From positions 33,576-97,575 of the forward strand of contig CAVIFQ010000001.1 of assembly GCA_963642055.1 (NCBI GenBank): DNA of 64,000 nucleotides, given 5' to 3'. This document shows, piece after piece, positions 4,314 to 58,155 of the stretch. Below the pieces are notes generated by a model, which did no database searches, was not told the origin of the DNA, and was given only the letters and a program-made list of their open reading frames with translations. The position numbers were made by a program, and so were the translations under genes. Origin of the DNA: Roseburia hominis. GTDB taxonomy: Bacteria; Bacillota_I; Bacilli_A; RFN20; CAG-826. Numbering within the stretch: the first letter of the stretch is position 1; each line of letters begins with the position of its first letter.

Positions 4314-6194
4314 ATGAAAGAAAAGCCAGTAAGAATCGACATGAATTCCATAAAAGACCCCAACTTTGTCAAAACGCTTTCTTACAAGCAGTTGGAGATG
4401 CTTTGCGCTGATATTCGCCGCGAGATAATTTTAAAGACCTCAATATATGGCGGGCATCTATCAAGCAACCTCGGAATCGTTGAGCTGACGGTCGCTTTAT
4501 GCCGCAGTTTCGACTTCGACAAAGACAAAGTCGTTTTCGATGTCGGGCATCAATCCTATACCTATAAGATCCTCACTGGCCGTTCGCTCGACCATTTGAA
4601 CGAAAAAGGCCACGTCTGCGGCTTCCAGAAGATGGCCGAATCCCCTTACGACTATTATGAGGCTGGTCATAGCTCGACTTCCTTAAGCGCGATCGAGGGT
4701 TTTGCGATCGCCCGCGACCTCAAATACGAGAATTACGACATCGTCAGCGTGATTGGCGATGCCAGCATCGTCAATGGCCTTGCTTTCGAAGCCTTAAACG
4801 ACATTGGCTCGAGAAATCACAAAGTCATCGTCGTCTTGAACGATAACGAGATGAGCATCTCTTCGCCAACCGGATCAGTAGGGAAACTCTTCCGAAAAGT
4901 CTCGGTCAATAAGCTCTATAACGACATCAAACGCAGCTACCGCAAATCGATGGTTTCCAAGACTGGCGCGGGAAAAAGAATAGGATCCGTCATGCATTTC
5001 ATCAAATCGAAGGTGAAAAGCGTGCTCGTCCCTAATACCATTTTCGATAACATGGGCTTCACATATCTAGGCCCAGTGAACGGGCACGATATCAAGGCTC
5101 TTGAAAAAGCCTTCAAGGAGGCCAAAACGGCGACAAAATCCGTCCTTATCCATGTCAGAACCAAAAAAGGAAAAGGTTATGAGATGGCGGAGAATGACAA
5201 AGTCGGTTATTGGCATGGCGTCACGCCTTTCGATATCGCCACGGGCAAGCCGAGCAATCTCCATGATGGACTCAATTCCTGGAGCCATCATGTCGGCGAT
5301 TTAGTGCATCGCCTCATGGCTACGCGTCACGACTGCGAACTCATCGTTCCCGCGATGGTGCGCGGAAGCGGATTAGAGGCTTGCTTTGACGATTACCCAC
5401 TCCGTTCTCTCGATGTCGGCATCGCCGAAGAGCACGCCGCGACTCTATCTGGGGCGATGTCTATCGCGGGTCTTCACCCGATTTTGACCGTCTATTCGAC
5501 GTTTTTGCAGAGGGCGTATGATGAGATTTTTCATGACTGCGCCCGCATGAAGACCGATATGACTTTGCTCATCGATAGGGCAGGGCTAGTGGGCAAAAAC
5601 GGGGAAACGCATCAAGGAATCTACGATGTGGCCTATTTAAAAAGCATCCCGAATGTCACGATCACGATGCCAAGCACTTATTCTTCGCTTGAGGGGTTGC
5701 TCTTGCAATCTCTAGAAAAAGGACATGGGGTCTACGCCATCCGTTACCCTCACGAAATCATGAGAGCGGAAGAAAAAGAGGCGAGCAAAGACGAAATCGT
5801 CTTCGGAAAATGGATAAAACGCAAAGAGATAGTGGAAGGCGGAACCAACATTTTGGGTGTCGGCCCGCTCGGCCATGAGCTTTATATAAATATCAAAGAT
5901 AAACCCGTTGGTTTCATCGACCCCATCTTCCTTTCGCCACTAGACGAAGAGACTCTTAATGAACTACTGAGCAGTAAAAACATCGTCATTTATGATCCTT
6001 ACAGCACGAAAGGCGGATTCGCCGAATCGGTGCTCTCGAGCCTTATGGAGAAGGGGTATAAGGGCAAAGTCATCGTCCGTGCCTTGCCAGTCGCTTTCAT
6101 CCAACACGCCTCTAACAAAGAGCAACTAAGCGATTCATCCTTGCTTATAGAGCAAGTGACGGAACTCATCGATAGCCTAATAGACGCCGAGTAA
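4314..6194 (+). CDS. dxs: 1-deoxy-D-xylulose-5-phosphate synthase
   Basis: 626-aa ORF with the typical Dxs N-terminus (GGHLSSNLG..EL, FDVGHQSYTYKILTGR) and a transketolase-like layout. No SD upstream. Confidence 0.95.
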   Translation: MKEKPVRIDMNSIKDPNFVKTLSYKQLEMLCADIRREIILKTSIYGGHLSSNLGIVELTVALCRSFDFDKDKVVFDVGHQSYTYKILTGRSLDHLNEKGHVCGFQKMAESPYDYYEAGHSSTSLSAIEGFAIARDLKYENYDIVSVIGDASIVNGLAFEALNDIGSRNHKVIVVLNDNEMSISSPTGSVGKLFRKVSVNKLYNDIKRSYRKSMVSKTGAGKRIGSVMHFIKSKVKSVLVPNTIFDNMGFTYLGPVNGHDIKALEKAFKEAKTATKSVLIHVRTKKGKGYEMAENDKVGYWHGVTPFDIATGKPSNLHDGLNSWSHHVGDLVHRLMATRHDCELIVPAMVRGSGLEACFDDYPLRSLDVGIAEEHAATLSGAMSIAGLHPILTVYSTFLQRAYDEIFHDCARMKTDMTLLIDRAGLVGKNGETHQGIYDVAYLKSIPNVTITMPSTYSSLEGLLLQSLEKGHGVYAIRYPHEIMRAEEKEASKDEIVFGKWIKRKEIVEGGTNILGVGPLGHELYINIKDKPVGFIDPIFLSPLDEETLNELLSSKNIVIYDPYSTKGGFAESVLSSLMEKGYKGKVIVRALPVAFIQHASNKEQLSDSSLLIEQVTELIDSLIDAE

Positions 6195-6205
6195 TCGGCG
6201 TTTTT
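6185..6205 (+). terminator. Rho-independent terminator after dxs
   Basis: Stem CGCCGA / TCGGCG with loop GTAA, followed by TTTTT. Confidence 0.7.
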
Positions 6206-6217
6206 ACTTAACATAAT
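6204..6217 (+). other. Isolated XerD-arm-like half site (TTACTTAACATAAT), identical to the XerD arm of the dif site at 11757-11770
   Basis: Exact 14-mer shared with the dif locus, in the same orientation. The adjacent 17 nt do not resemble a central region plus XerC arm. Confidence 0.4.
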
Positions 6218-6242
6218 CTTCTTAGGAAGATAGACTTTCCTC

Positions 6243-7436
6243 ATGAGCAAAATCATCATGCACATCGATCTGAACGCTTTCTTCGCCACCGCGGAAGAAG
6301 CGAGAAATCCCTCGCTCCGTGGGAAACCGATCGTTGTAGGGCATCCAGGGAGAAGAGGGGTTGTCTCAACCGCCAATTACGAGGCCCGCAAATACGGCGT
6401 TCATAGCGCAATGCCGACGTATGAAGCCGTCAATAAATGTCCTTCATTAATAGTGGTTCCCTGCGATTTTTCTTATTACGAGATGCTCTCGAATTCCTTT
6501 TTTGCCTTTTTGCGACGAATCTCGCCACTCGTTGAGCCCGCGAGCATCGATGAAGGATACGTCGATATGACCTCGGTTCTCAAAAACGAGAAGAACCCTT
6601 TGCTGTATCTCCAAAAACTCCAGAAATCCATTTACGATGAGCTTGATCTCAAATGTTCCATCGGCATCGCGCCGAGCAAATTCCTCGCGAAAATGTCGAG
6701 CGACCTCAAAAAACCGATGGGCATCACCGTTTGTCGAAGGAAAGATATGGAGACGCTCATCTATCCTCTCCCGATTTCCTCTTTTTGGGGCATTGGAAAG
6801 AAGACCGCGCCTAAACTAGAGGCCCTCGGCATAGCAACCATCGGCGATTTCAAGAAGAGGTGCGATGAGAATGACCCTGCAGTCGCCGAACTCCTTGGCA
6901 AATTCTTCTTCACCGCCAAAGAGTGGGTGAACGGCTATGGAGACGATACGGTGAATCCCGAGCCTTTCGATCCGAAAAGCATCGGCAGGATGGAGACTTT
7001 CTCTAGCGATACCAATGATTACGAGGAAATATCCTATAAAATTCAGGAATTAGCGAGAGAAGTCGCAACCGCCGCCCAAAGGGAAGGGAAAAAGGGCAAA
7101 ACGGTCTCGCTCGTCGTCAAAGACACCTCTTTCAAAAGCCACGACAAAAGCTCGACGAGCAAAAGCGCCACGAATGACTTCGAGGATATTTACGCGAAGG
7201 CCCTTTCTTTATATGAGCACAATTTCCTCGGCCAAGTCATTAGGCTAGTCGGCGTCTCTCTTTCCTCTTTAATTGACCCCAAGGAAGAGACGGTGCAGCT
7301 CTCTTTTTGGAATTACGAGGAATACGAGGAGATGGATAAGACGAAGCTCCTCATCAATGACTTCAATCGGAAACTCAAGGGGGAATACCTTTCTACGCTC
7401 AGGGAGAAAAAAGAACATGGAAATAAAAAAAGCTGA
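6243..7436 (+). CDS. dinB: DNA polymerase IV (Y-family)
   Basis: 397-aa ORF with N-terminal IMHIDLNAFFATAE and SIDEGYVD motifs characteristic of DinB/UmuC polymerases. Confidence 0.9.
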   Translation: MSKIIMHIDLNAFFATAEEARNPSLRGKPIVVGHPGRRGVVSTANYEARKYGVHSAMPTYEAVNKCPSLIVVPCDFSYYEMLSNSFFAFLRRISPLVEPASIDEGYVDMTSVLKNEKNPLLYLQKLQKSIYDELDLKCSIGIAPSKFLAKMSSDLKKPMGITVCRRKDMETLIYPLPISSFWGIGKKTAPKLEALGIATIGDFKKRCDENDPAVAELLGKFFFTAKEWVNGYGDDTVNPEPFDPKSIGRMETFSSDTNDYEEISYKIQELAREVATAAQREGKKGKTVSLVVKDTSFKSHDKSSTSKSATNDFEDIYAKALSLYEHNFLGQVIRLVGVSLSSLIDPKEETVQLSFWNYEEYEEMDKTKLLINDFNRKLKGEYLSTLREKKEHGNKKS

Positions 7437-23863: not shown

Positions 23864-24760
23864 GGAAAGCTTTTCTTTCCAGTTCTCCTCATAGATGCCG
23901 CTTTGTAGCATCTCGATTTCCTTTTTGTAAGGATATATCGTATCTTTTCCGTCACTTATTACGGGCGTCTCGAGTATTTTCGGAACGCTAGAAAGAGCTG
24001 GCTCCACCACCCATTTATGGAGTTTTTCAAAGCCGATCGTGCCATAGCCTATATTCGCGTGACGGTCTTTATGGGAAGAAGGCGGATTGAGGGAATCATT
24101 GAGATGGACGGCCTTGATTAAAGAAATGGGCAAATAGGAGGAGAATTCCTCTAAAAGTGCTTTTGGATCGCTCACATCATACCCGGCATCGGACAAGTGG
24201 CAGGTATCTAGGCAGATACCAATGCGGTCTTTCTTTTCGATGCCTTCATATATCGCTTTTAGCTCTTCAAAGGAGGAGCCGATCTCACTCCCTTTCCCAG
24301 CCATTGTCTCTAGAAGTATCTTCACTCCGCTTTCATCATGAGAAAAAACCTCATTGAGCCCTTCAATGATGTAACGGATGCCGCTTTCTTTGCTCTCTCC
24401 GACCGAGCTCCCGGGATGGAGGACGAGCTTATCGAGCTTAAAGGCCGCGACTCTTTTTAATTCATCGAGCAAGAAACGCTTCGAAAGCTCGCGGGTCTCT
24501 TCTTTCAAGGGATTGGCGAGATTGATGATATAGGGGGCATGGACGATGATGGCGTCTTTAGAAAAAGAAACCGAATCAAGGAGCGAATTGCCTTCCTCAA
24601 TCTTCAATGATTCGACGGGGAGGCGGCGCGTATTTTGCGGAGCGCCAGTATAAAACATAAAGGCGCTTTCGCCCCATTCGAGGGCTTTTTGGACGGTCGA
24701 AAGGTAAAAAAGCGGCGAAGAAAGAGAGATATGGCTCCCTAAAAGGATCTTCTCGCTCAT
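23858..24760 (-). CDS. nfo: Endonuclease IV
   Basis: 300 aa with a TIM-barrel AP endonuclease pattern (HAPYIINL, LHPGS, ETMAGKG, CLDTCH, HLNDS). Overlaps the cshB-like gene by 4 nt, as in Bacillus yqfR-yqfS. Confidence 0.9.
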   Translation of the reverse strand: MSEKILLGSHISLSSPLFYLSTVQKALEWGESAFMFYTGAPQNTRRLPVESLKIEEGNSLLDSVSFSKDAIIVHAPYIINLANPLKEETRELSKRFLLDELKRVAAFKLDKLVLHPGSSVGESKESGIRYIIEGLNEVFSHDESGVKILLETMAGKGSEIGSSFEELKAIYEGIEKKDRIGICLDTCHLSDAGYDVSDPKALLEEFSSYLPISLIKAVHLNDSLNPPSSHKDRHANIGYGTIGFEKLHKWVVEPALSSVPKILETPVISDGKDTIYPYKKEIEMLQSGIYEENWKEKLSL

Positions 24761-27077: not shown

Positions 27078-27754
27078 GTAGCGAAGGCTTTTTCGATGGC
27101 TTCGATTTCCTTTCGGAGTTCTTTTTGCTTTGCTTCTCCGATTGAAGGATAAGCGAGGATATTTTTATCTCTTTCTAAAGCTGCCTTCCAATACCGTTTC
27201 CACTCCTCGCTCTGCCTTTTTATCTCGATAGGGCCAAAGAAAAGCTCCTCTTCGTTATAAGAGATAGGCTTTTTGCTCTTCTCGAAAAGATAGACGCAGT
27301 ACGGTTTCCCTTTGTCGTAAAGGAAAATATCGTCTTTCGCGTAAAAGGAATGCTCCATCAGCCATTTGAGCAATACTGGGTATTCAGAATGGGCGTCAAT
27401 GACCATATAGTCGATATTTCCTAGCTTATTCTGCCCATCTTCTAAGATATCGCGAATGAGTAATCCACCCATCCCAGCGATGATCAAGGCGTTGACCCAA
27501 CTTGGGATATCGCTTAAGCCGGAAGAAAGAGAGACGCCGATTTGCTTCTCATATCCTTCCTTATTGATCCGCTCCTTCATGATTTTGTAGGGGCCGATTT
27601 TATTATCGACGGCAAAAACTTTCGTTACGATTCCGCGAGAGACTAGAGCAAGCGGGACATAAGCGTGATCGCTCCCGATATCGGCGGGATAGCTATCCTT
27701 TTTGACAAAGGAGATGATGGCTTCTAGCCGCTTAGAGCACTTTCCTGTTTCCAT
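27059..27754 (-). CDS. trmK: tRNA (adenine22-N1)-methyltransferase TrmK
   Basis: 231 aa with N-terminal RLEAI..FV......ADIGSDHAYVP and IAGMGG, which are typical of TrmK/YqfN. Converges on ispH with a 19-nt overlap. Confidence 0.8.
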   Translation of the reverse strand: METGKCSKRLEAIISFVKKDSYPADIGSDHAYVPLALVSRGIVTKVFAVDNKIGPYKIMKERINKEGYEKQIGVSLSSGLSDIPSWVNALIIAGMGGLLIRDILEDGQNKLGNIDYMVIDAHSEYPVLLKWLMEHSFYAKDDIFLYDKGKPYCVYLFEKSKKPISYNEEELFFGPIEIKRQSEEWKRYWKAALERDKNILAYPSIGEAKQKELRKEIEAIEKAFATQSEDK

Positions 27755-28826
27755 TATTCAAAACTTTCTTCATTTTGAAAAGCGCCCGTTCCTTCTTCTG
27801 ACGGATCCTCTCCCGGGTGAGATTATAGCTTTTCCCGATCTCTTCGGCTGATTCGGCTCTCCTCCCGTTTAGCCCGTAATAACGGCAGATGATGTCGCTT
27901 TCTTGAGGGCTAAGTTGCTTTAAGCAACGCGCAATTTGCCGCATATCATCCTCGAATTCGATGGTCTTCTTGATGTCGCGCTCGCTCCCCTCATCCGCCT
28001 CGAAATCCCCGATCTCGCCTTCATTTTCCTCATTTATCTTCTCGTTGAGCGAGATGGCGTGAGTTTTCGAAAAGGAATCGAGCTCTTTAATTTTCGATTC
28101 ATCGAGAGTCGGGAAAAAAGACATAAGTTCATCATCGCTTGGCTCTTTGCCTAAGCGGGCCGCAAGTTCGCCTCTGTGCCTTTTTAAGCGCGCGATTTCC
28201 TGCTCTTTGTAAGTAGGGATGCGGAGGACGTTTTTCCCTTCGTCAATCCCGCGCGTGATGCTTTGGCGGATCCACCAGGTGGCGTAAGTCGAGAATTTGA
28301 AGCCTTTTCGGTAATCGAAGCGGTCGACGGCTTTGATGAGACCCTCATTCCCGCTTTGGATGAGATCGGCAAAAGGGACGTCGTTCCGCCGATATTGGGA
28401 GGCGATATCGATGACGAGGCGGAGATTGGAGGTGATGAGGGTATCGCGGGCCTTTTTCCCTTCTTCCACCGCCTTTTTCAGTTCGTTTTCGTTTGCGGAG
28501 CCAAGAGAAAGCGCCTTTTCGGCCTCTTTCCCTTTTTCCATTCTTTTCCCGAGCTCTTGTTCCTGCTCTTTCTCAAGAACGGGGTATTTCCCCATTTCGT
28601 TGAAATAAAAAGAAAGGCCGGAAGAGGAGAAAGAGGAAGAAGGAAGAACCTCCTCTTTCTCGTTATAGATGCCTTTCTTGGATAAAAGGGAAGATAAAGC
28701 CTCGTAGTCCTCTTCGCTTAAAGAGAGCTCATCGATGATGGATAAGAGGTCGGCTCGCGAAAAAGAGCCTTTCTTTTTCCTAAGCGTTTCCGCCTTTTTG
28801 AGAGCTTTCTCTAAGGTAGATGTCAA
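27732..28826 (-). CDS. Sigma-70 family factor, RpoD paralog (regions 1.2-4 present)
   Basis: 364 aa. TTG start with GGAGG 7 nt upstream, 18 nt after the rpoD stop. Region 2 reads [20 protein letters not shown]. Region 4.2 reads LTRERIRQKKERALFKMK. Overlaps trmK by 23 nt. Confidence 0.8.
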   Translation of the reverse strand: MTSTLEKALKKAETLRKKKGSFSRADLLSIIDELSLSEEDYEALSSLLSKKGIYNEKEEVLPSSSFSSSGLSFYFNEMGKYPVLEKEQEQELGKRMEKGKEAEKALSLGSANENELKKAVEEGKKARDTLITSNLRLVIDIASQYRRNDVPFADLIQSGNEGLIKAVDRFDYRKGFKFSTYATWWIRQSITRGIDEGKNVLRIPTYKEQEIARLKRHRGELAARLGKEPSDDELMSFFPTLDESKIKELDSFSKTHAISLNEKINEENEGEIGDFEADEGSERDIKKTIEFEDDMRQIARCLKQLSPQESDIICRYYGLNGRRAESAEEIGKSYNLTRERIRQKKERALFKMKKVLNNGNRKVL

Positions 28827-28844: not shown

Positions 28845-30290
28845 TTATTTCTTGTTGGTGTCAGGTCCAGTCTGGACGAAGGTGTCGCGGTAATCGCCGA
28901 GCTTTTTTGCGCGGGTCGGATGGCGAAGCTTCCTGATGGCTTTGGCTTCGATCTGACGGATTCTCTCGCGAGTGACGCCGAATTCGCGACCCACTTCTTC
29001 TAGGGTTCTTGGGCGGTTGTCGTCTAAGCCATAACGGAGTCTCAATACTTTCTCCTCGCGCTCAGTGAGGTCTTTCATGATCTCGTAGAGCTCGTCTTTA
29101 AGGAGCGACTTCGTCGTGTATTCTTCCGGCGATTGAGCCTCTTTATCCTCGATGAAGTCCCCTAAATGGCTATCATCCTCTTCGCCGATCGGGGTCTCTA
29201 AGGAGACAGGCTCCATCGCGATGCGCTGAATCTCGCGAATACGCTCTGGGGAAAGAGTGCCATCCATCTTCTTGCTGATTTCTTCCGCGGTTGGATCGCG
29301 CCCAAGCTCTTGGACGAGCTGGCGCTGAACGCGGGTCATTTTGTTGATGGTCTCCACCATATGGACCGGAATACGGATGGTGCGGGCTTGATCGGCGATT
29401 GCCCTAGTGATGGCTTGACGGATCCACCAGGTGGCGTAAGTCGAGAACTTGAAGCCTTTGGTGTAGTCGAATTTCTCGACGGCCTTGATTAAGCCCATAT
29501 TCCCTTCTTGGATGAGGTCAAGGAAATGCATGCCGCGCCCGACGTAGTGCTTCGCGATCGAGATGACGAGACGCAAATTGGCGGTGATGAGCTTGTTTTT
29601 GGCGTTTTGCCCATCATCGACCGTGCACTTGGTGAGGAAGATGTCTTTGGAAGGGTAATTGAAACGGATGGCTTTGCACCACTGCTCATAAGTCAGCTCG
29701 CCATGGTCATTTTTGTATTCGTCGTAATAAGCGCGGAGCTTTTTCGCCGCTTCTTCCCCTTCGACGATTCTTTTGGCAAGTTCCGTTTCCTCTTTCGCGG
29801 TGAGAAGGTCGACTTTCCCGATTTCCTTCAGATACATCTTCACCGAGTCATTGACTTTGACCTCGCCTGACTGGAGTTTGCTGAAATCGTCGATGGATTC
29901 GACTTCCTCTTTCTCTTCGCTCTCTTCGCTCAGCTCTTCATCGGCTTCCATCTCCTCGTTCTGCTTCTCGAGGTCGATTTCGCCGACATCGGCATCATCT
30001 AAAGAGGTCTCTTCGTCTTCATCCGAGACCACTTTGATGCCGCTCGAGACGAAGAAGTTGATGAGGTTCTCGTAATCGTCTTCGCTCAGATCATATTTGC
30101 TCGTGATATCCATGATCTCGCCTTGGTTGAGTTCGCCTTTCTCTTTGCCTAAAGCGAGCAGATCCTTCTTGAGCTTCGCGATCAGATTCTCCTGCTCTTC
30201 GCCTTCATCATCGATGATCACGTCATCGAGTTCGTTCTCTTCGTCGAGTTCTTTCTTTTCTTCGACTTTCTTGCTTTTTTTCGTTGCCAT
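28845..30290 (-). CDS. rpoD: RNA polymerase primary sigma factor
   Basis: 481 aa with canonical [33 protein letters not shown] and [20 protein letters not shown]. Long acidic N-terminal region. Directly downstream of dnaG. Confidence 0.95.
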
Positions 30291-47852: not shown

Positions 47853-47868
47853 CGCTTTTCTCCTTTCC

Positions 47869-55332: not shown

Positions 55333-55535
55333 GGAAGGTATTATACCTTTCTATCGTCTTTCTTGCTCCTTATTGATTGCCTCTTGCCTTTTTCTCGCCT
55401 CAAAAAGACGCTTTAAAAGACAAAAATGGAAAATATTCGATATTTCCTATTTTCTAGTGTTATCAAATGATACGAAAAAACGGCGATTGGGCAATTTTGA
55501 TGAAGGAAAGGGACATTCGTGATAGAGTAGACGCC

Positions 55536-56429
55536 ATGAAAATGAAAGATCATCTCGTGCGCGCCTATTCTTCGAACGGCGAAGTGCGCGCTTTTGCCTT
55601 AAATAGCCTCAATCTCGTGAAAGAGGCGGCCTCAATCCACTCTTTGAATCCTATCGCCACCATCGCTTTGGGACGAGCTTTAAGCGCTTCGTTATTAGTG
55701 AGTGAGACCTTAAAAGACGATGAGACCCTCACTCTCCGCTTCGAAGGGGATGGGGAAATGAAGGAAGTCATCGCCATCGTCGATGGGAAGCACGAATGCA
55801 AGGGTTACGTCAGGAATGGCTCTTTCGCAATAAACGAAAATACGTGCTCCGTGGGGAAAGCCCTAGGCAAAGGAACTCTCACCATCATCCGCGATATGCA
55901 TATGAAAGAGCCTTATATCTCTTCCGTTCCTTTATATAACGGGGAAATCGCCGAGGATCTGACGCATTATTTCGCTAACAGCGAGCAAACCGCCACCGCG
56001 CTTGGCTTAAGCGTGAATCTCGACAAAGATGCGAATATCGTATCCGCGGGCGGCTTCTTCGTGCAGCTGATGCCCAATGCGAGCGAAAACACGATCTCTC
56101 TCCTTGAGAGGAATATCAAAAACATCGGCTCAGTCGGCGTGCGACTAGAAGAAGGAAAAAGCGTCGAGGATATCATCGATATGCTCTTCCTTGACCTAGA
56201 GCCTGTCTTTATGACGGAACCCGTCGAAGTATCCTATCACTGCTCTTGCTCCAAAGAGCATTTCGATAAAGTGCTCATCGCTTTAGGGAGAAAAGAGCTC
56301 CGCGAGATGATGAATGACGATAAACCCGTCGAAATCAAATGCGAGTTCTGTGGCAAAACATACAGCTGGAGCAAAGAGGAGATAGCTTCGCTCTACTACT
56401 CCTTGTTCCCTAATAACGGAAAAGCCTAA
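55536..56429 (+). CDS. hslO: Redox-regulated chaperone Hsp33
   Basis: The start at the ATG 55536 (MKMKDHLVRAYSSNGEVRAFAL...) fits the Hsp33 N-terminus. C-terminal zinc centre CSCS...CEFCG. The ORF track start at 55467 is probably too early. Confidence 0.85.
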   Translation: MKMKDHLVRAYSSNGEVRAFALNSLNLVKEAASIHSLNPIATIALGRALSASLLVSETLKDDETLTLRFEGDGEMKEVIAIVDGKHECKGYVRNGSFAINENTCSVGKALGKGTLTIIRDMHMKEPYISSVPLYNGEIAEDLTHYFANSEQTATALGLSVNLDKDANIVSAGGFFVQLMPNASENTISLLERNIKNIGSVGVRLEEGKSVEDIIDMLFLDLEPVFMTEPVEVSYHCSCSKEHFDKVLIALGRKELREMMNDDKPVEIKCEFCGKTYSWSKEEIASLYYSLFPNNGKA

Positions 56430-56438
56430 AAGTACATC

Positions 56439-56712
56439 AAAAAAAACAAATGAAAAGAGATCCGGGAAATAGCGGGTCTTTTTTCGCTTTTCCACGGATC
56501 TCCGGTTCTCTCTTAGGGAAAGGAGGGTCTAAGAGAAACTCAGAGTTCTGAAAGATGATTGAGGAGGACTTTCAGAACGATAGATCGCCTAAGGGTCGAA
56601 AGGAGGTTGGTTCCCTTAAGAGGTACCTTTATGGTAGCGCTTTCATTCGCGTCTGTGAAGGGGGTAAATGAAAAATTTTTATGAGATTTTATCGAAGAAA
56701 ATCGGTAAGCCA
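56439..56712. ncRNA. Candidate structured small RNA: three stem-loops each displaying an SD-like (plus strand) or anti-SD-like (minus strand) sequence
   Basis: Hairpin A, 56509-56536: 8-bp stem, loop GGAAAGGAGGGT. Hairpin B, 56545-56578: perfect 10-bp stem, loop ATGATTGAGGAGGA. Hairpin C, 56590-56618: 6-bp stem, loop TCGAAAGGAGGTTGGTT. On the minus strand an 8-bp stem (56495-56502 / 56457-56464) precedes a long U-tract. No convincing promoter was found, so the strand is unresolved. Confidence 0.35.
56458..56484 (+). terminator. Rho-independent terminator after hslO
   Basis: Stem AGATCCG / CGGGTCT (one G-U pair), followed by TTTTTT. Confidence 0.65.
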
Positions 56713-56738
56713 GTAAAAAAGTCCCGATTAGGGGACTT
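56713..56738 (-). terminator. Rho-independent terminator after the 56763-57263 gene
   Basis: Stem AAGTCCC / GGGACTT, followed on the minus strand by TTTTTT. Confidence 0.65.
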
Positions 56739-56762
56739 CCTCAAACAAGATTCCAATTTTGT

Positions 56763-57263
56763 CTAGGCTTTTTCGCTCTCTTTTTCTTCCACTAGAGCGT
56801 AAGCGCAGCGCTTCTTCTCGCGGTAATCGGCGTAGAGAGTTGCGCCTTTTTTAAGAGTTAAATAGGTGAGATAGAGAAAACCAACGGTCAAAATGAGCAG
56901 CGCGTAATATCCGCCACCCCTTTTCATCCCAAAACCGACCGCGAAAAAGGCTGAGGCGATCGCCACCAGAAATACGAAAGAAGCCAGTAAAGCGTAGAGA
57001 TGAGCGTTCACCCGCACTTTCTCCGCTTTCTCGAGTTTATCCGCGGCCTTATGCCTATTCTCATTCGCTTTTAGGAATACGGATGTATCGATTTCGGAGT
57101 CGCTAGAAAGAACGAGCTCTGGCTCCTTTTTGAGCGGAACGAGAAGATAAGGGATATTGTTGTCCTCTTTGCTTGCTTTTTCAAAGCTTATTCCTTCATT
57201 TTTCCCGAGTTTTTTCAGGGCTTCCCCTTTATCGGAGATATTGATGCGGTAACGGTAATTCAT
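56763..57263 (-). CDS. Hypothetical membrane protein (two C-terminal TM helices)
   Basis: 166-aa ORF bracketed by its own terminator and the mgtC terminator. No SD. Confidence 0.45.
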   Translation of the reverse strand: MNYRYRINISDKGEALKKLGKNEGISFEKASKEDNNIPYLLVPLKKEPELVLSSDSEIDTSVFLKANENRHKAADKLEKAEKVRVNAHLYALLASFVFLVAIASAFFAVGFGMKRGGGYYALLILTVGFLYLTYLTLKKGATLYADYREKKRCAYALVEEKESEKA

Positions 57264-58126: not shown

Positions 58127-58155
58127 ATTATACGCGCTTATAAGCGCTTTCATAA
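58127..58155 (-). promoter_or_regulatory. mgtC promoter (TTATGA-17 nt-TATAAT) with a perfect 14-bp palindrome GCGCTTATAAGCGC filling the spacer
   Basis: The -10 lies at 58127-58132 and the palindrome at 58134-58147. A 12/14 second copy, GCGCTTATATTCGC, is at 58174-58187. Confidence 0.5.

Follow-up and report, generated by a model that had tools for sequence, protein, structure and literature searches.

The gap behind the chaperone gene hslO in a 64,000-nt stretch of contig CAVIFQ010000001.1 (assembly GCA_963642055.1, deposited as Roseburia hominis; hereafter the window) very probably encodes a real, strongly conserved and structured small RNA (sRNA) gene on the minus strand. All coordinates given here are positions in this window, and plus and minus refer to its strands. 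The gap extends over 333 nt from the stop codon of hslO (55467-56429, plus strand; its homologues belong to Pfam HSP33) to the stop codon, at 56763, of a minus-strand gene of 166 amino acids (aa). A preliminary description made from the letters of the window had placed three hairpins in this gap, one of them with a perfect 10-bp stem, and all three are found where it had put them. Together with a long terminator hairpin, they make up a single element of about 180 nt. In the reading that we favour as a whole and regard as probable, this element is a stand-alone minus-strand sRNA that would act in trans by masking Shine-Dalgarno (SD) sequences and would probably be catabolite-repressed.

The element is new to the catalogues. 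In the whole 64-kb window no Rfam family reaches its gathering score, and a search of 56300-56900 at E<=10 returned solely chance matches of 12-17 bits to unrelated families. The comparison with Rfam, which the preliminary description had proposed, thus yielded no known family that would explain the element. What has no counterpart in Rfam 15 is the sRNA itself; its mechanistic kind, that of the SD-masking CU-rich sRNAs of Bacillota, is already known.

Conservation, structure and strand of the element

Relatives were gathered by searching a large protein database with HslO and retrieving the contigs, and by one DNA-pattern scan of metagenomes. The protein database contained HslO homologues of 96%, 76% and 57-60% identity, whereas an HslO search of genome contigs found only distant homologues (at most 37% identity), all of them without the element. 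The metagenome scan, with the invariant 22-mer GGTTCTCTCTTAGGGAAAGGAG, gave four matches, which are two further variants, one duplicate and one chance match. The last (L028, JAAUXU010099727.1, 8459-8480), an unrelated contig, was rejected as a relative, since there is no similarity in the flanks of its 22 matching nucleotides. The element was found downstream of hslO in 11 distinct variants, known only from metagenomes or metagenome-assembled genomes (the window, L013, L014, L015, L016, L027, L020, L025, L022, L031 and L039); one more copy, in L036, is cut off by the contig end. A covariance model of the element matches 11 loci with 132-204 bits. According to nhmmer and cmsearch there is one copy in the 64-kb window and one per locus. 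The order dinG, hslO, element, a gene of 164-178 aa (166 aa in the window), mgtC and an SNF2 helicase gene is kept. Beside the hslO genes of the 46-48% identical homologues the element is absent, and so is the synteny.

Conservation of the RNA region goes well beyond that of its surroundings. In the distant loci, where HslO shares 57-59% of its residues with the window protein, the third codon positions of hslO retain an identity of 34-45%, which is near saturation, and yet the RNA region is 75-79% identical to that of the window. About 85 nt are invariant across the variants, the exceptions being a single compensated change in L031 and the incomplete copy in L036. This invariant part reaches from just upstream of the third hairpin through both arms of the terminator hairpin, the variable tip of the latter excluded. 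Such identity despite third-codon saturation, together with the invariant nucleotides, indicates a functional non-coding element and not spacer DNA. No conserved open reading frame (ORF) was found within the element on either strand of the 11 variants.

The four hairpins are named H1, H2, H3 and T in the order in which the minus-strand RNA would contain them (Table 1). The stem of H1, CUUAAGGG/CCCUUAGG, has a U.G pair on the minus strand that becomes a C.A mismatch on the plus strand. Its inner pairs covary (GC, AU and GU, with a UA-to-CG change in L014), and its loop carries CCUCCUUU(C/G), a CUCCUUU motif, in nine variants and a degraded form of it in L031 and L039. The H2 stem is variable by lineage yet paired (GUUCUGAAAG, UUCUCGGAGG, CUCAAGA, CCCGAGAU), eight of its ten pairs being altered on both sides, with 12 G.U cells on the minus strand; the H2 loop reads (U/C)CCUCCUC(A/G)AA, with the core UCCUC(R)A in all 11 variants. 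The H3 stem, of 8 bp on the plus strand and 10 bp on the minus strand if one U.G is counted, does not vary among the 11 variants. The same holds for the CUCCUUUCC of its loop, (A)CC-CUCCUUUCC. In T, apical pairs covary (AU/GC and GC/CG/UA, alignment columns 161-162 with 175-176). Conservation and covariation of the stems in relatives, as looked for by the preliminary description, were accordingly found for H2, the inner pairs of H1 and the tip of T, and H3 is invariant.

On the plus strand, the loops of H3, H2 and H1 read GGAAAGGAGGGT, ATGATTGAGGAGGA and TCGAAAGGAGGTTGGTT, just as the preliminary description had given them. On the minus strand their motifs are CUCCUUUCC, CCUCCUC and CCUCCUUU, which are pyrimidine-rich, complementary to SD sequences and conserved across the homologues. 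We take these loops to be copies of the anti-SD 3' tail of 16S rRNA (presumably ...CACCUCCUUUCU-3' in Bacillus-type rRNA); in several variants the H3 loop is ACCUCCUUUC, with up to 10 consecutive nucleotides identical to the tail so assumed.

The covariance model was built from a MAFFT alignment and a hand-drawn structure of four hairpins, and the 11 sequences were realigned to it. In this alignment, standard pairs fill 94.8% of the pair cells. Changes on both sides affect 13 pairs, against 7.2 +/- 1.4 in column shuffles, none of 500 of which reaches 13, and pairing falls to 34-62% when the partners are slid by 1-3 columns. RNAalifold independently recovers all four hairpins, with 10 pairs changed on both sides. 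The informative parts are H2, the inner H1 and the tip of T, whereas H3 and most of T, being invariant, say nothing about structure either way.

The covariation also tells the strands apart. Compared with shuffled sequence, the minus strand folds with a z-score of -4.8 and the plus strand with one of -3.0; total folding energy fails to separate the strands, but the count of G.U against A.C at the level of single pairs does so. Over all helices of the model alignment, 421 Watson-Crick pairs, 37 G.U pairs and 25 mismatches are counted on the minus strand, against 421, 8 and 54 on the plus strand. Since the 3' arm of H2 was shifted in L016, L027 and L022 in both the MAFFT and the first covariance-model alignments, H1 and H2 were also counted with manually defined arms. 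This gave 182 Watson-Crick pairs, 15 G.U pairs and 2 mismatches on the minus strand and 182, 1 and 16 on the plus strand.

The arms of H3 and H1 are, as the preliminary description had noticed, complementary to each other in the window, and the observation as such is correct. The alternative long-range fold that it had derived from this was rejected, for where H1 varies (L014, L016, L022, L031 and L039) its changes are compensated within H1 and not by the invariant arm of H3.

Terminator-like hairpin, promoter-like site and cre-like operator

On the minus strand of the window, T is followed by UUUCAUUUGUUUUUUUU. The succession of a hairpin and UUUUCAUU is conserved on this strand only, and all variants keep a tail UUUUCA(U/A/G)U behind T, again on the minus strand only. 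The minus-strand terminator foreseen in the preliminary description thus has its counterpart in the terminator-like T and its conserved U-tract. The plus strand beyond T is U-poor (CGGUUCUC); T probably also ends the convergent hslO transcript.

A promoter-like site, which lies outside the claims of the preliminary description, precedes H1. It reads TTCACA-17-TACCAT in the window, and TTGATT-18-TATCAT stands at the homologous place in L022; in 10 of the 11 variants a TTG-type hexamer is located 16-18 nt upstream of the -10 box. Promoter-like and terminator-like sequences, both recognized as matches to consensus, occupy fixed positions on the minus strand across the variants. With a minus-only promoter-like site and a minus-only U-tract, the asymmetry of G.U against A.C agrees, and by this threefold agreement the RNA is placed on the minus strand. 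The minus-strand sRNA with anti-SD-like loops to which the preliminary description inclined is therefore borne out. Its supposed fourth C-run (56658-56669) did not stand, as it overlaps or lies upstream of the -35 box, falls outside the RNA and is not conserved.

A second finding beyond the preliminary description is a cre-like operator. The cre consensus is WTGNAANCGNWNNCW or TGWAANCGNTNWCA, and ATGAAAGCGCTACCA in the promoter-like site fits it. The operator is a near-palindrome centred on CG, and its right half is the -10 box itself. Its core TGAAAGCGCTAnCA is invariant in all 11 variants, as is (A)TGAAAGCGCTAnCAT, while the remaining promoter spacer varies. In the window the cre pattern has five matches where 1.2 are expected. 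As the right half of the operator coincides with the -10 box, a bound repressor of the LacI/CcpA type would block transcription, which suggests repression by a preferred carbon source. Control of the sRNA by CcpA is thus possible, and our confidence in it falls slightly short of even; ccpA, ptsH and hprK do not occur in the 64-kb window. Another near-perfect cre-like sequence, TGAAAGCGCTTATA (58139-58152, minus strand), coincides with the start of the mgtC coding sequence (MKALI), probably by a chance of coding, although the operon concerned is the one immediately upstream of the sRNA.

Table 1. Positions of the element, its parts and other features in the window.
Feature	Position	Strand	Remarks
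Predicted sRNA transcript, about 180 nt	56447..56626	-	5' end predicted from the -10 box (+/- 3 nt), 3' end from the U-tract
-35-like box	56654..56659	-	TTCACA in the window, TTGATT/TTGCAT/TTGCAA in most relatives; consensus match
-10 box	56631..56636	-	TACCAT in the window, TATCAT/TAACAT in relatives; consensus match
cre-like palindromic operator	56632..56646	-	ATGAAAGCGCTACCA; overlaps the -10 box; cre pattern match, putative CcpA binding
Hairpin H1 (C in the preliminary description)	56588..56620	-	minus-strand loop AACCAACCUCCUUUCGA, 56596-56612
Hairpin H2 (B in the preliminary description)	56545..56578	-	perfect 10-bp stem; minus-strand loop UCCUCCUCAAUCAU, 56555-56568
Hairpin H3 (A in the preliminary description)	56507..56538	-	minus-strand loop ACCCUCCUUUCC, 56517-56528
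Terminator hairpin T and U-rich tail	56439..56503	-	hairpin 56456-56503 with 18-nt arms, tail 56439-56455
Terminator of the upstream 166-aa gene	56714..56737	-	AGUCCC-CUAAUC-GGGACU-UUUUUA; hairpin in the minimum-free-energy fold; separates the 166-aa gene from the sRNA promoter
Starts of genes with putative short leaders or none	55332(-), 63067(-), 36124(-), 43068(-), 52942(-), 26202(+)		TATAAT-like box, no SD

Proposed mode of action and its alternatives

The following course of events is proposed. Transcription of the minus strand would start at a sigma-A-type promoter (TTGnnn, 16-18 nt, TAnCAT), the -10 box of which lies inside a near-perfect CcpA-type cre operator (TGAAAGCGCTAnCA), so that the sRNA would be repressed in the presence of a preferred sugar and made once this sugar is exhausted. 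The RNA would fold into H1, H2, H3 and T, and transcription would stop at the long hairpin followed by UUUUCAUU. The loops would then base-pair with ribosome-binding sites of the GGAGG type in a set of mRNAs, which would block binding of the 30S subunit and may also trigger decay of the mRNA. For the SD masking itself, we put the chances a little above even.

Genes of the window use GGAG or GGAGG sites, with strong SDs at hrcA, grpE, dnaK and dnaJ. When duplexes of the three loops with translation-initiation regions were scanned, the best candidates were the starts at 24760 (nfo-like), 26178 (DEAD helicase) and 47852 (hrcA). The loop motifs have no excess of exact complements in the window. 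Seven nucleotides before the ATG of hrcA, GGAAAGGAG (47860-47868, minus strand) is perfectly complementary to the H3 loop motif CUCCUUUCC, which is invariant, and hrcA is the sole gene start of the window with such a match. The hrcA mRNA is thus a candidate target, which would link the sRNA, itself a neighbour of the chaperone gene hslO, to the heat-shock regulon.

Several findings weigh against a catabolite-repressed sRNA that masks SD sequences in trans. The duplex scan of the three loops against the 53 translation-initiation regions of the window gave no enrichment over internal coding controls. Moreover, many genes, among them dinG, a SWIM-domain gene, ybeY, lepA and ispH, have a TATAAT-like box 6-13 nt before the start codon and no SD; mRNAs with a very short leader or none thus seem frequent in this organism, which would limit the pool of SD-led targets. 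The promoter is weak relative to the consensus (9 of 12 matches in both the window and L022), and the sites in L016 and L020 are just under the threshold of the scan. The other matches to the cre pattern in the window are near nusB or inside genes, and none is at a catabolic or sugar gene. In L034, with an HslO of 57% identity and the dinG-hslO neighbourhood, the 560 nt beside hslO (5904-6463) contain no element, and a plain terminator directly follows hslO, so that either not all members of the clade have the element or L034 carries it elsewhere in its genome. Finally, H3 and most of T are invariant with their stems included, which is more than pairing by the loops needs. This probably reflects an additional constraint, either a protein partner or the terminator of the convergent hslO.

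The latter constraint leads to a cis-antisense element joined to a bidirectional hslO terminator. The block would then matter mainly as the place where the convergent hslO mRNA ends, and the minus-strand RNA, instead of acting on distant mRNAs, would base-pair with the 3' end of this mRNA and control its stability. Element and hslO converge in every case. The TGA stop codon of hslO in L020/L021 is inside the sRNA terminator tail (TGAAAAGAG, 5946-5951), and in L039 the element begins directly after the hslO stop codon (1451), so that hslO mRNA must run antisense into the sRNA gene in these loci. Two functions on one stretch of DNA would also help to explain why the stems of T and H3 are invariant. 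On the other hand, L031 keeps the element in spite of a separate, strong hslO terminator of its own before it (AGCGCTT..AAGCGCTTTTTTT, about 5925-5960), three exposed anti-SD loops and the covarying H1 and H2 would be superfluous for an antisense role, and the plus-strand tail behind T is U-poor. We consider this explanation unlikely as a substitute for a trans-acting sRNA, with which an antisense or terminator role is not mutually exclusive.

The protein partner, for its part, belongs to a reading in which the RNA is a decoy of the 16S tail or a protein-binding RNA, the loops titrating a factor that recognizes the anti-SD tail or pyrimidine-rich RNA, or competing globally for SD sites. The long identity of the H3 loop with the presumed 16S tail is in keeping with this, and so is the frequency of leaderless-looking genes; that H3 and T are invariant over their entire stems points to a protein which recognizes their sequence. 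Against it, a partner is not known, and stoichiometric competition with ribosomes is implausible for a single sRNA gene with a modest promoter. The loss of the H1 motif in L031 and L039 is better explained by redundant seed sites than by the fixed architecture of a decoy. We hold a decoy to be rather improbable, and a little more improbable still its most far-reaching form, in which the RNA, produced when carbon runs out, would mimic the 16S tail three times over and, instead of regulating a few mRNAs, would compete globally for SD sequences or sequester a protein that recognizes the anti-SD. Were it true, global competition would shift translation from SD-led mRNAs (such as hrcA-grpE-dnaK-dnaJ) to the many leaderless ones of this lineage, and a protein partner dedicated to this RNA would account for the unvarying stems of H3 and T.

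The preliminary description had also considered the plus strand, on which the loops would make a protein sponge of the CsrB/RsmZ type. The RNA would then be an hslO 3' untranslated region or a separate sRNA whose GGA/GGAGG loops sequester CsrA, or the 30S subunit. All three plus-strand loops do contain A(A/G)GGAGG, hslO transcription probably reaches the region, and the element shares with CsrB/RsmZ sponges the repetition of one short loop motif in several hairpins. However, it has GGA only if read on the plus strand, and its structure has been selected on the opposite one, the plus strand having 16 A.C/C.A mismatches and 1 G.U where the minus strand has 15 G.U and 2 mismatches. The plus strand has neither a conserved promoter nor a conserved U-tract. 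The sponges themselves contain many more GGA sites, the Rfam models CsrB, CsrC and RsmX/Y/Z have no match to the element even at E<=10, and csrA and fliW are absent from the 64-kb window. The sponge is accordingly abandoned here as very improbable.

It is hardly credible that the element is not an RNA gene at all and represents a dispersed palindromic repeat (similar to repetitive extragenic palindromes, REP, or miniature inverted-repeat transposable elements, MITE), a decayed gene fragment or a gene for a small protein. Several palindromes do stand in one long gap, and a plus-strand ORF starting with MKRDPGN is present in 8 of the 11 variants. Yet the element is single-copy in the window and at every locus, it has no match in plasmid, phage and viral collections, and the compensatory changes in its stems point to RNA structure. 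The MKRDPGN ORF was rejected as a gene, as it is absent in L016, L027 and L020, switches frame after a variable loop (FPRISGSLLGKG vs STDLRFSLRERR) and has no SD. A GTG ORF on the minus strand was likewise dismissed, neither its presence nor its frame being conserved.

Neighbouring genes and relation to known sRNAs

The product of the 166-aa gene (56763-57263, minus strand) has no match to a Pfam or NCBIfam family, and in the relatives the gene is always paired with mgtC. Immediately before its ATG stands CUCCUU, which is not an SD. Between its terminator and the sRNA promoter there is a small hairpin, GATTTTATCGAAGAAAATCGG (56684-56705), kept only in the close relatives L013-L015. On the other side of the element, the longest ORF of hslO encodes 320 aa from a start without SD (55467-55538), whereas near-identical members of its cluster are annotated with 297 aa, so that translation probably begins at the Met located 23 codons further on. 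Elsewhere, the window has the gene order lepA-hemW-hrcA-grpE-dnaK-dnaJ and the yqeG-to-rsfS, era-cdd-ybeY and rpoD-dnaG neighbourhoods. The host is taken to be an uncultured bacterium of the Bacillota, probably of class Bacilli; the nearest DnaK homologues with a name come from metagenome-assembled genomes labelled 'Bacilli bacterium' or 'Firmicutes bacterium'. Bacilli usually have a single rpoD beside dnaG; here, two adjacent genes of the sigma-70 family, at 27732-28826 (364 aa) and 28845-30290 (481 aa), both on the minus strand, are located downstream of dnaG.

The element represents a new sRNA family, well supported and clear in its strand, structure and seed motifs, from a Bacilli-type lineage that is known only from metagenomes and for which riboregulators are not described. 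It is a ready candidate for an Rfam seed alignment. Conservation is unusually strict (about 85 invariant nucleotides) and the loops copy the anti-SD tail with unusual literalness, in part almost exactly, so that the hypothesis lends itself to easy testing; yet the element embodies no new principle.

Most likely, judging by analogy, the element works like RsaI, LhrC and RoxS. The preliminary description had pointed to the RsaE/RoxS type, and this resemblance survives as far as the mechanism is concerned, that is, C/U-rich loops that would pair with SD sequences. Membership in that family does not, for lack of any Rfam model match. The loops of the C-rich hairpins of RoxS/RsaE and RNAIII pair with the SD, and this class of motif is conserved in low-GC Gram-positive bacteria (PMC2790875, PMC8216469). 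These RNAs have C-rich loop motifs followed by an intrinsic terminator, as is predicted for the element. The RsaE model (RF01820) does not match the element even at E<=10, the motifs differ (CCCC/UCCC in RsaE, CCUCC here), and so does the genomic context. Besides, RoxS is controlled by ResD/Rex, while the element has a cre-like operator.

The LhrC1-5 sRNAs of Listeria monocytogenes have three redundant CU-rich (UCCC) sites, each of which binds the G-rich SD region of a target (PMC4132741). The element resembles them as a G-poor RNA whose three redundant CU-rich sites lie in loops or are otherwise single-stranded. LhrC has a length of about 110 nt, is multicopy and is induced by LisRK under envelope stress, and it uses UCCC, whereas the element is about 180 nt long, single-copy and without an Rfam match, and it uses CCUCC/CUCCUUU.

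In Staphylococcus aureus grown in glucose, CcpA acts on a cre site to repress RsaI, whose CU-rich unpaired region masks ribosome-binding sites and blocks initiation (10.1101/278127). RsaI (RsaOG) is, as the element is predicted to be, a stand-alone sRNA of 140-180 nt in Bacillota with a cre at the promoter, and no similarity exists between them in sequence or by covariance model. RsaI has one CU-rich region together with G-tracks that bind other sRNAs, where the element displays three CUCC motifs in loops and has no G-tracks. The cre of RsaI is at -45/-30, whereas that of the element overlaps the -10 box and CcpA control is only putative in our case. The comparison suggests that the combination found in RsaI, catabolite control of an SD-masking CU-rich sRNA, arose independently in distant Bacillota.

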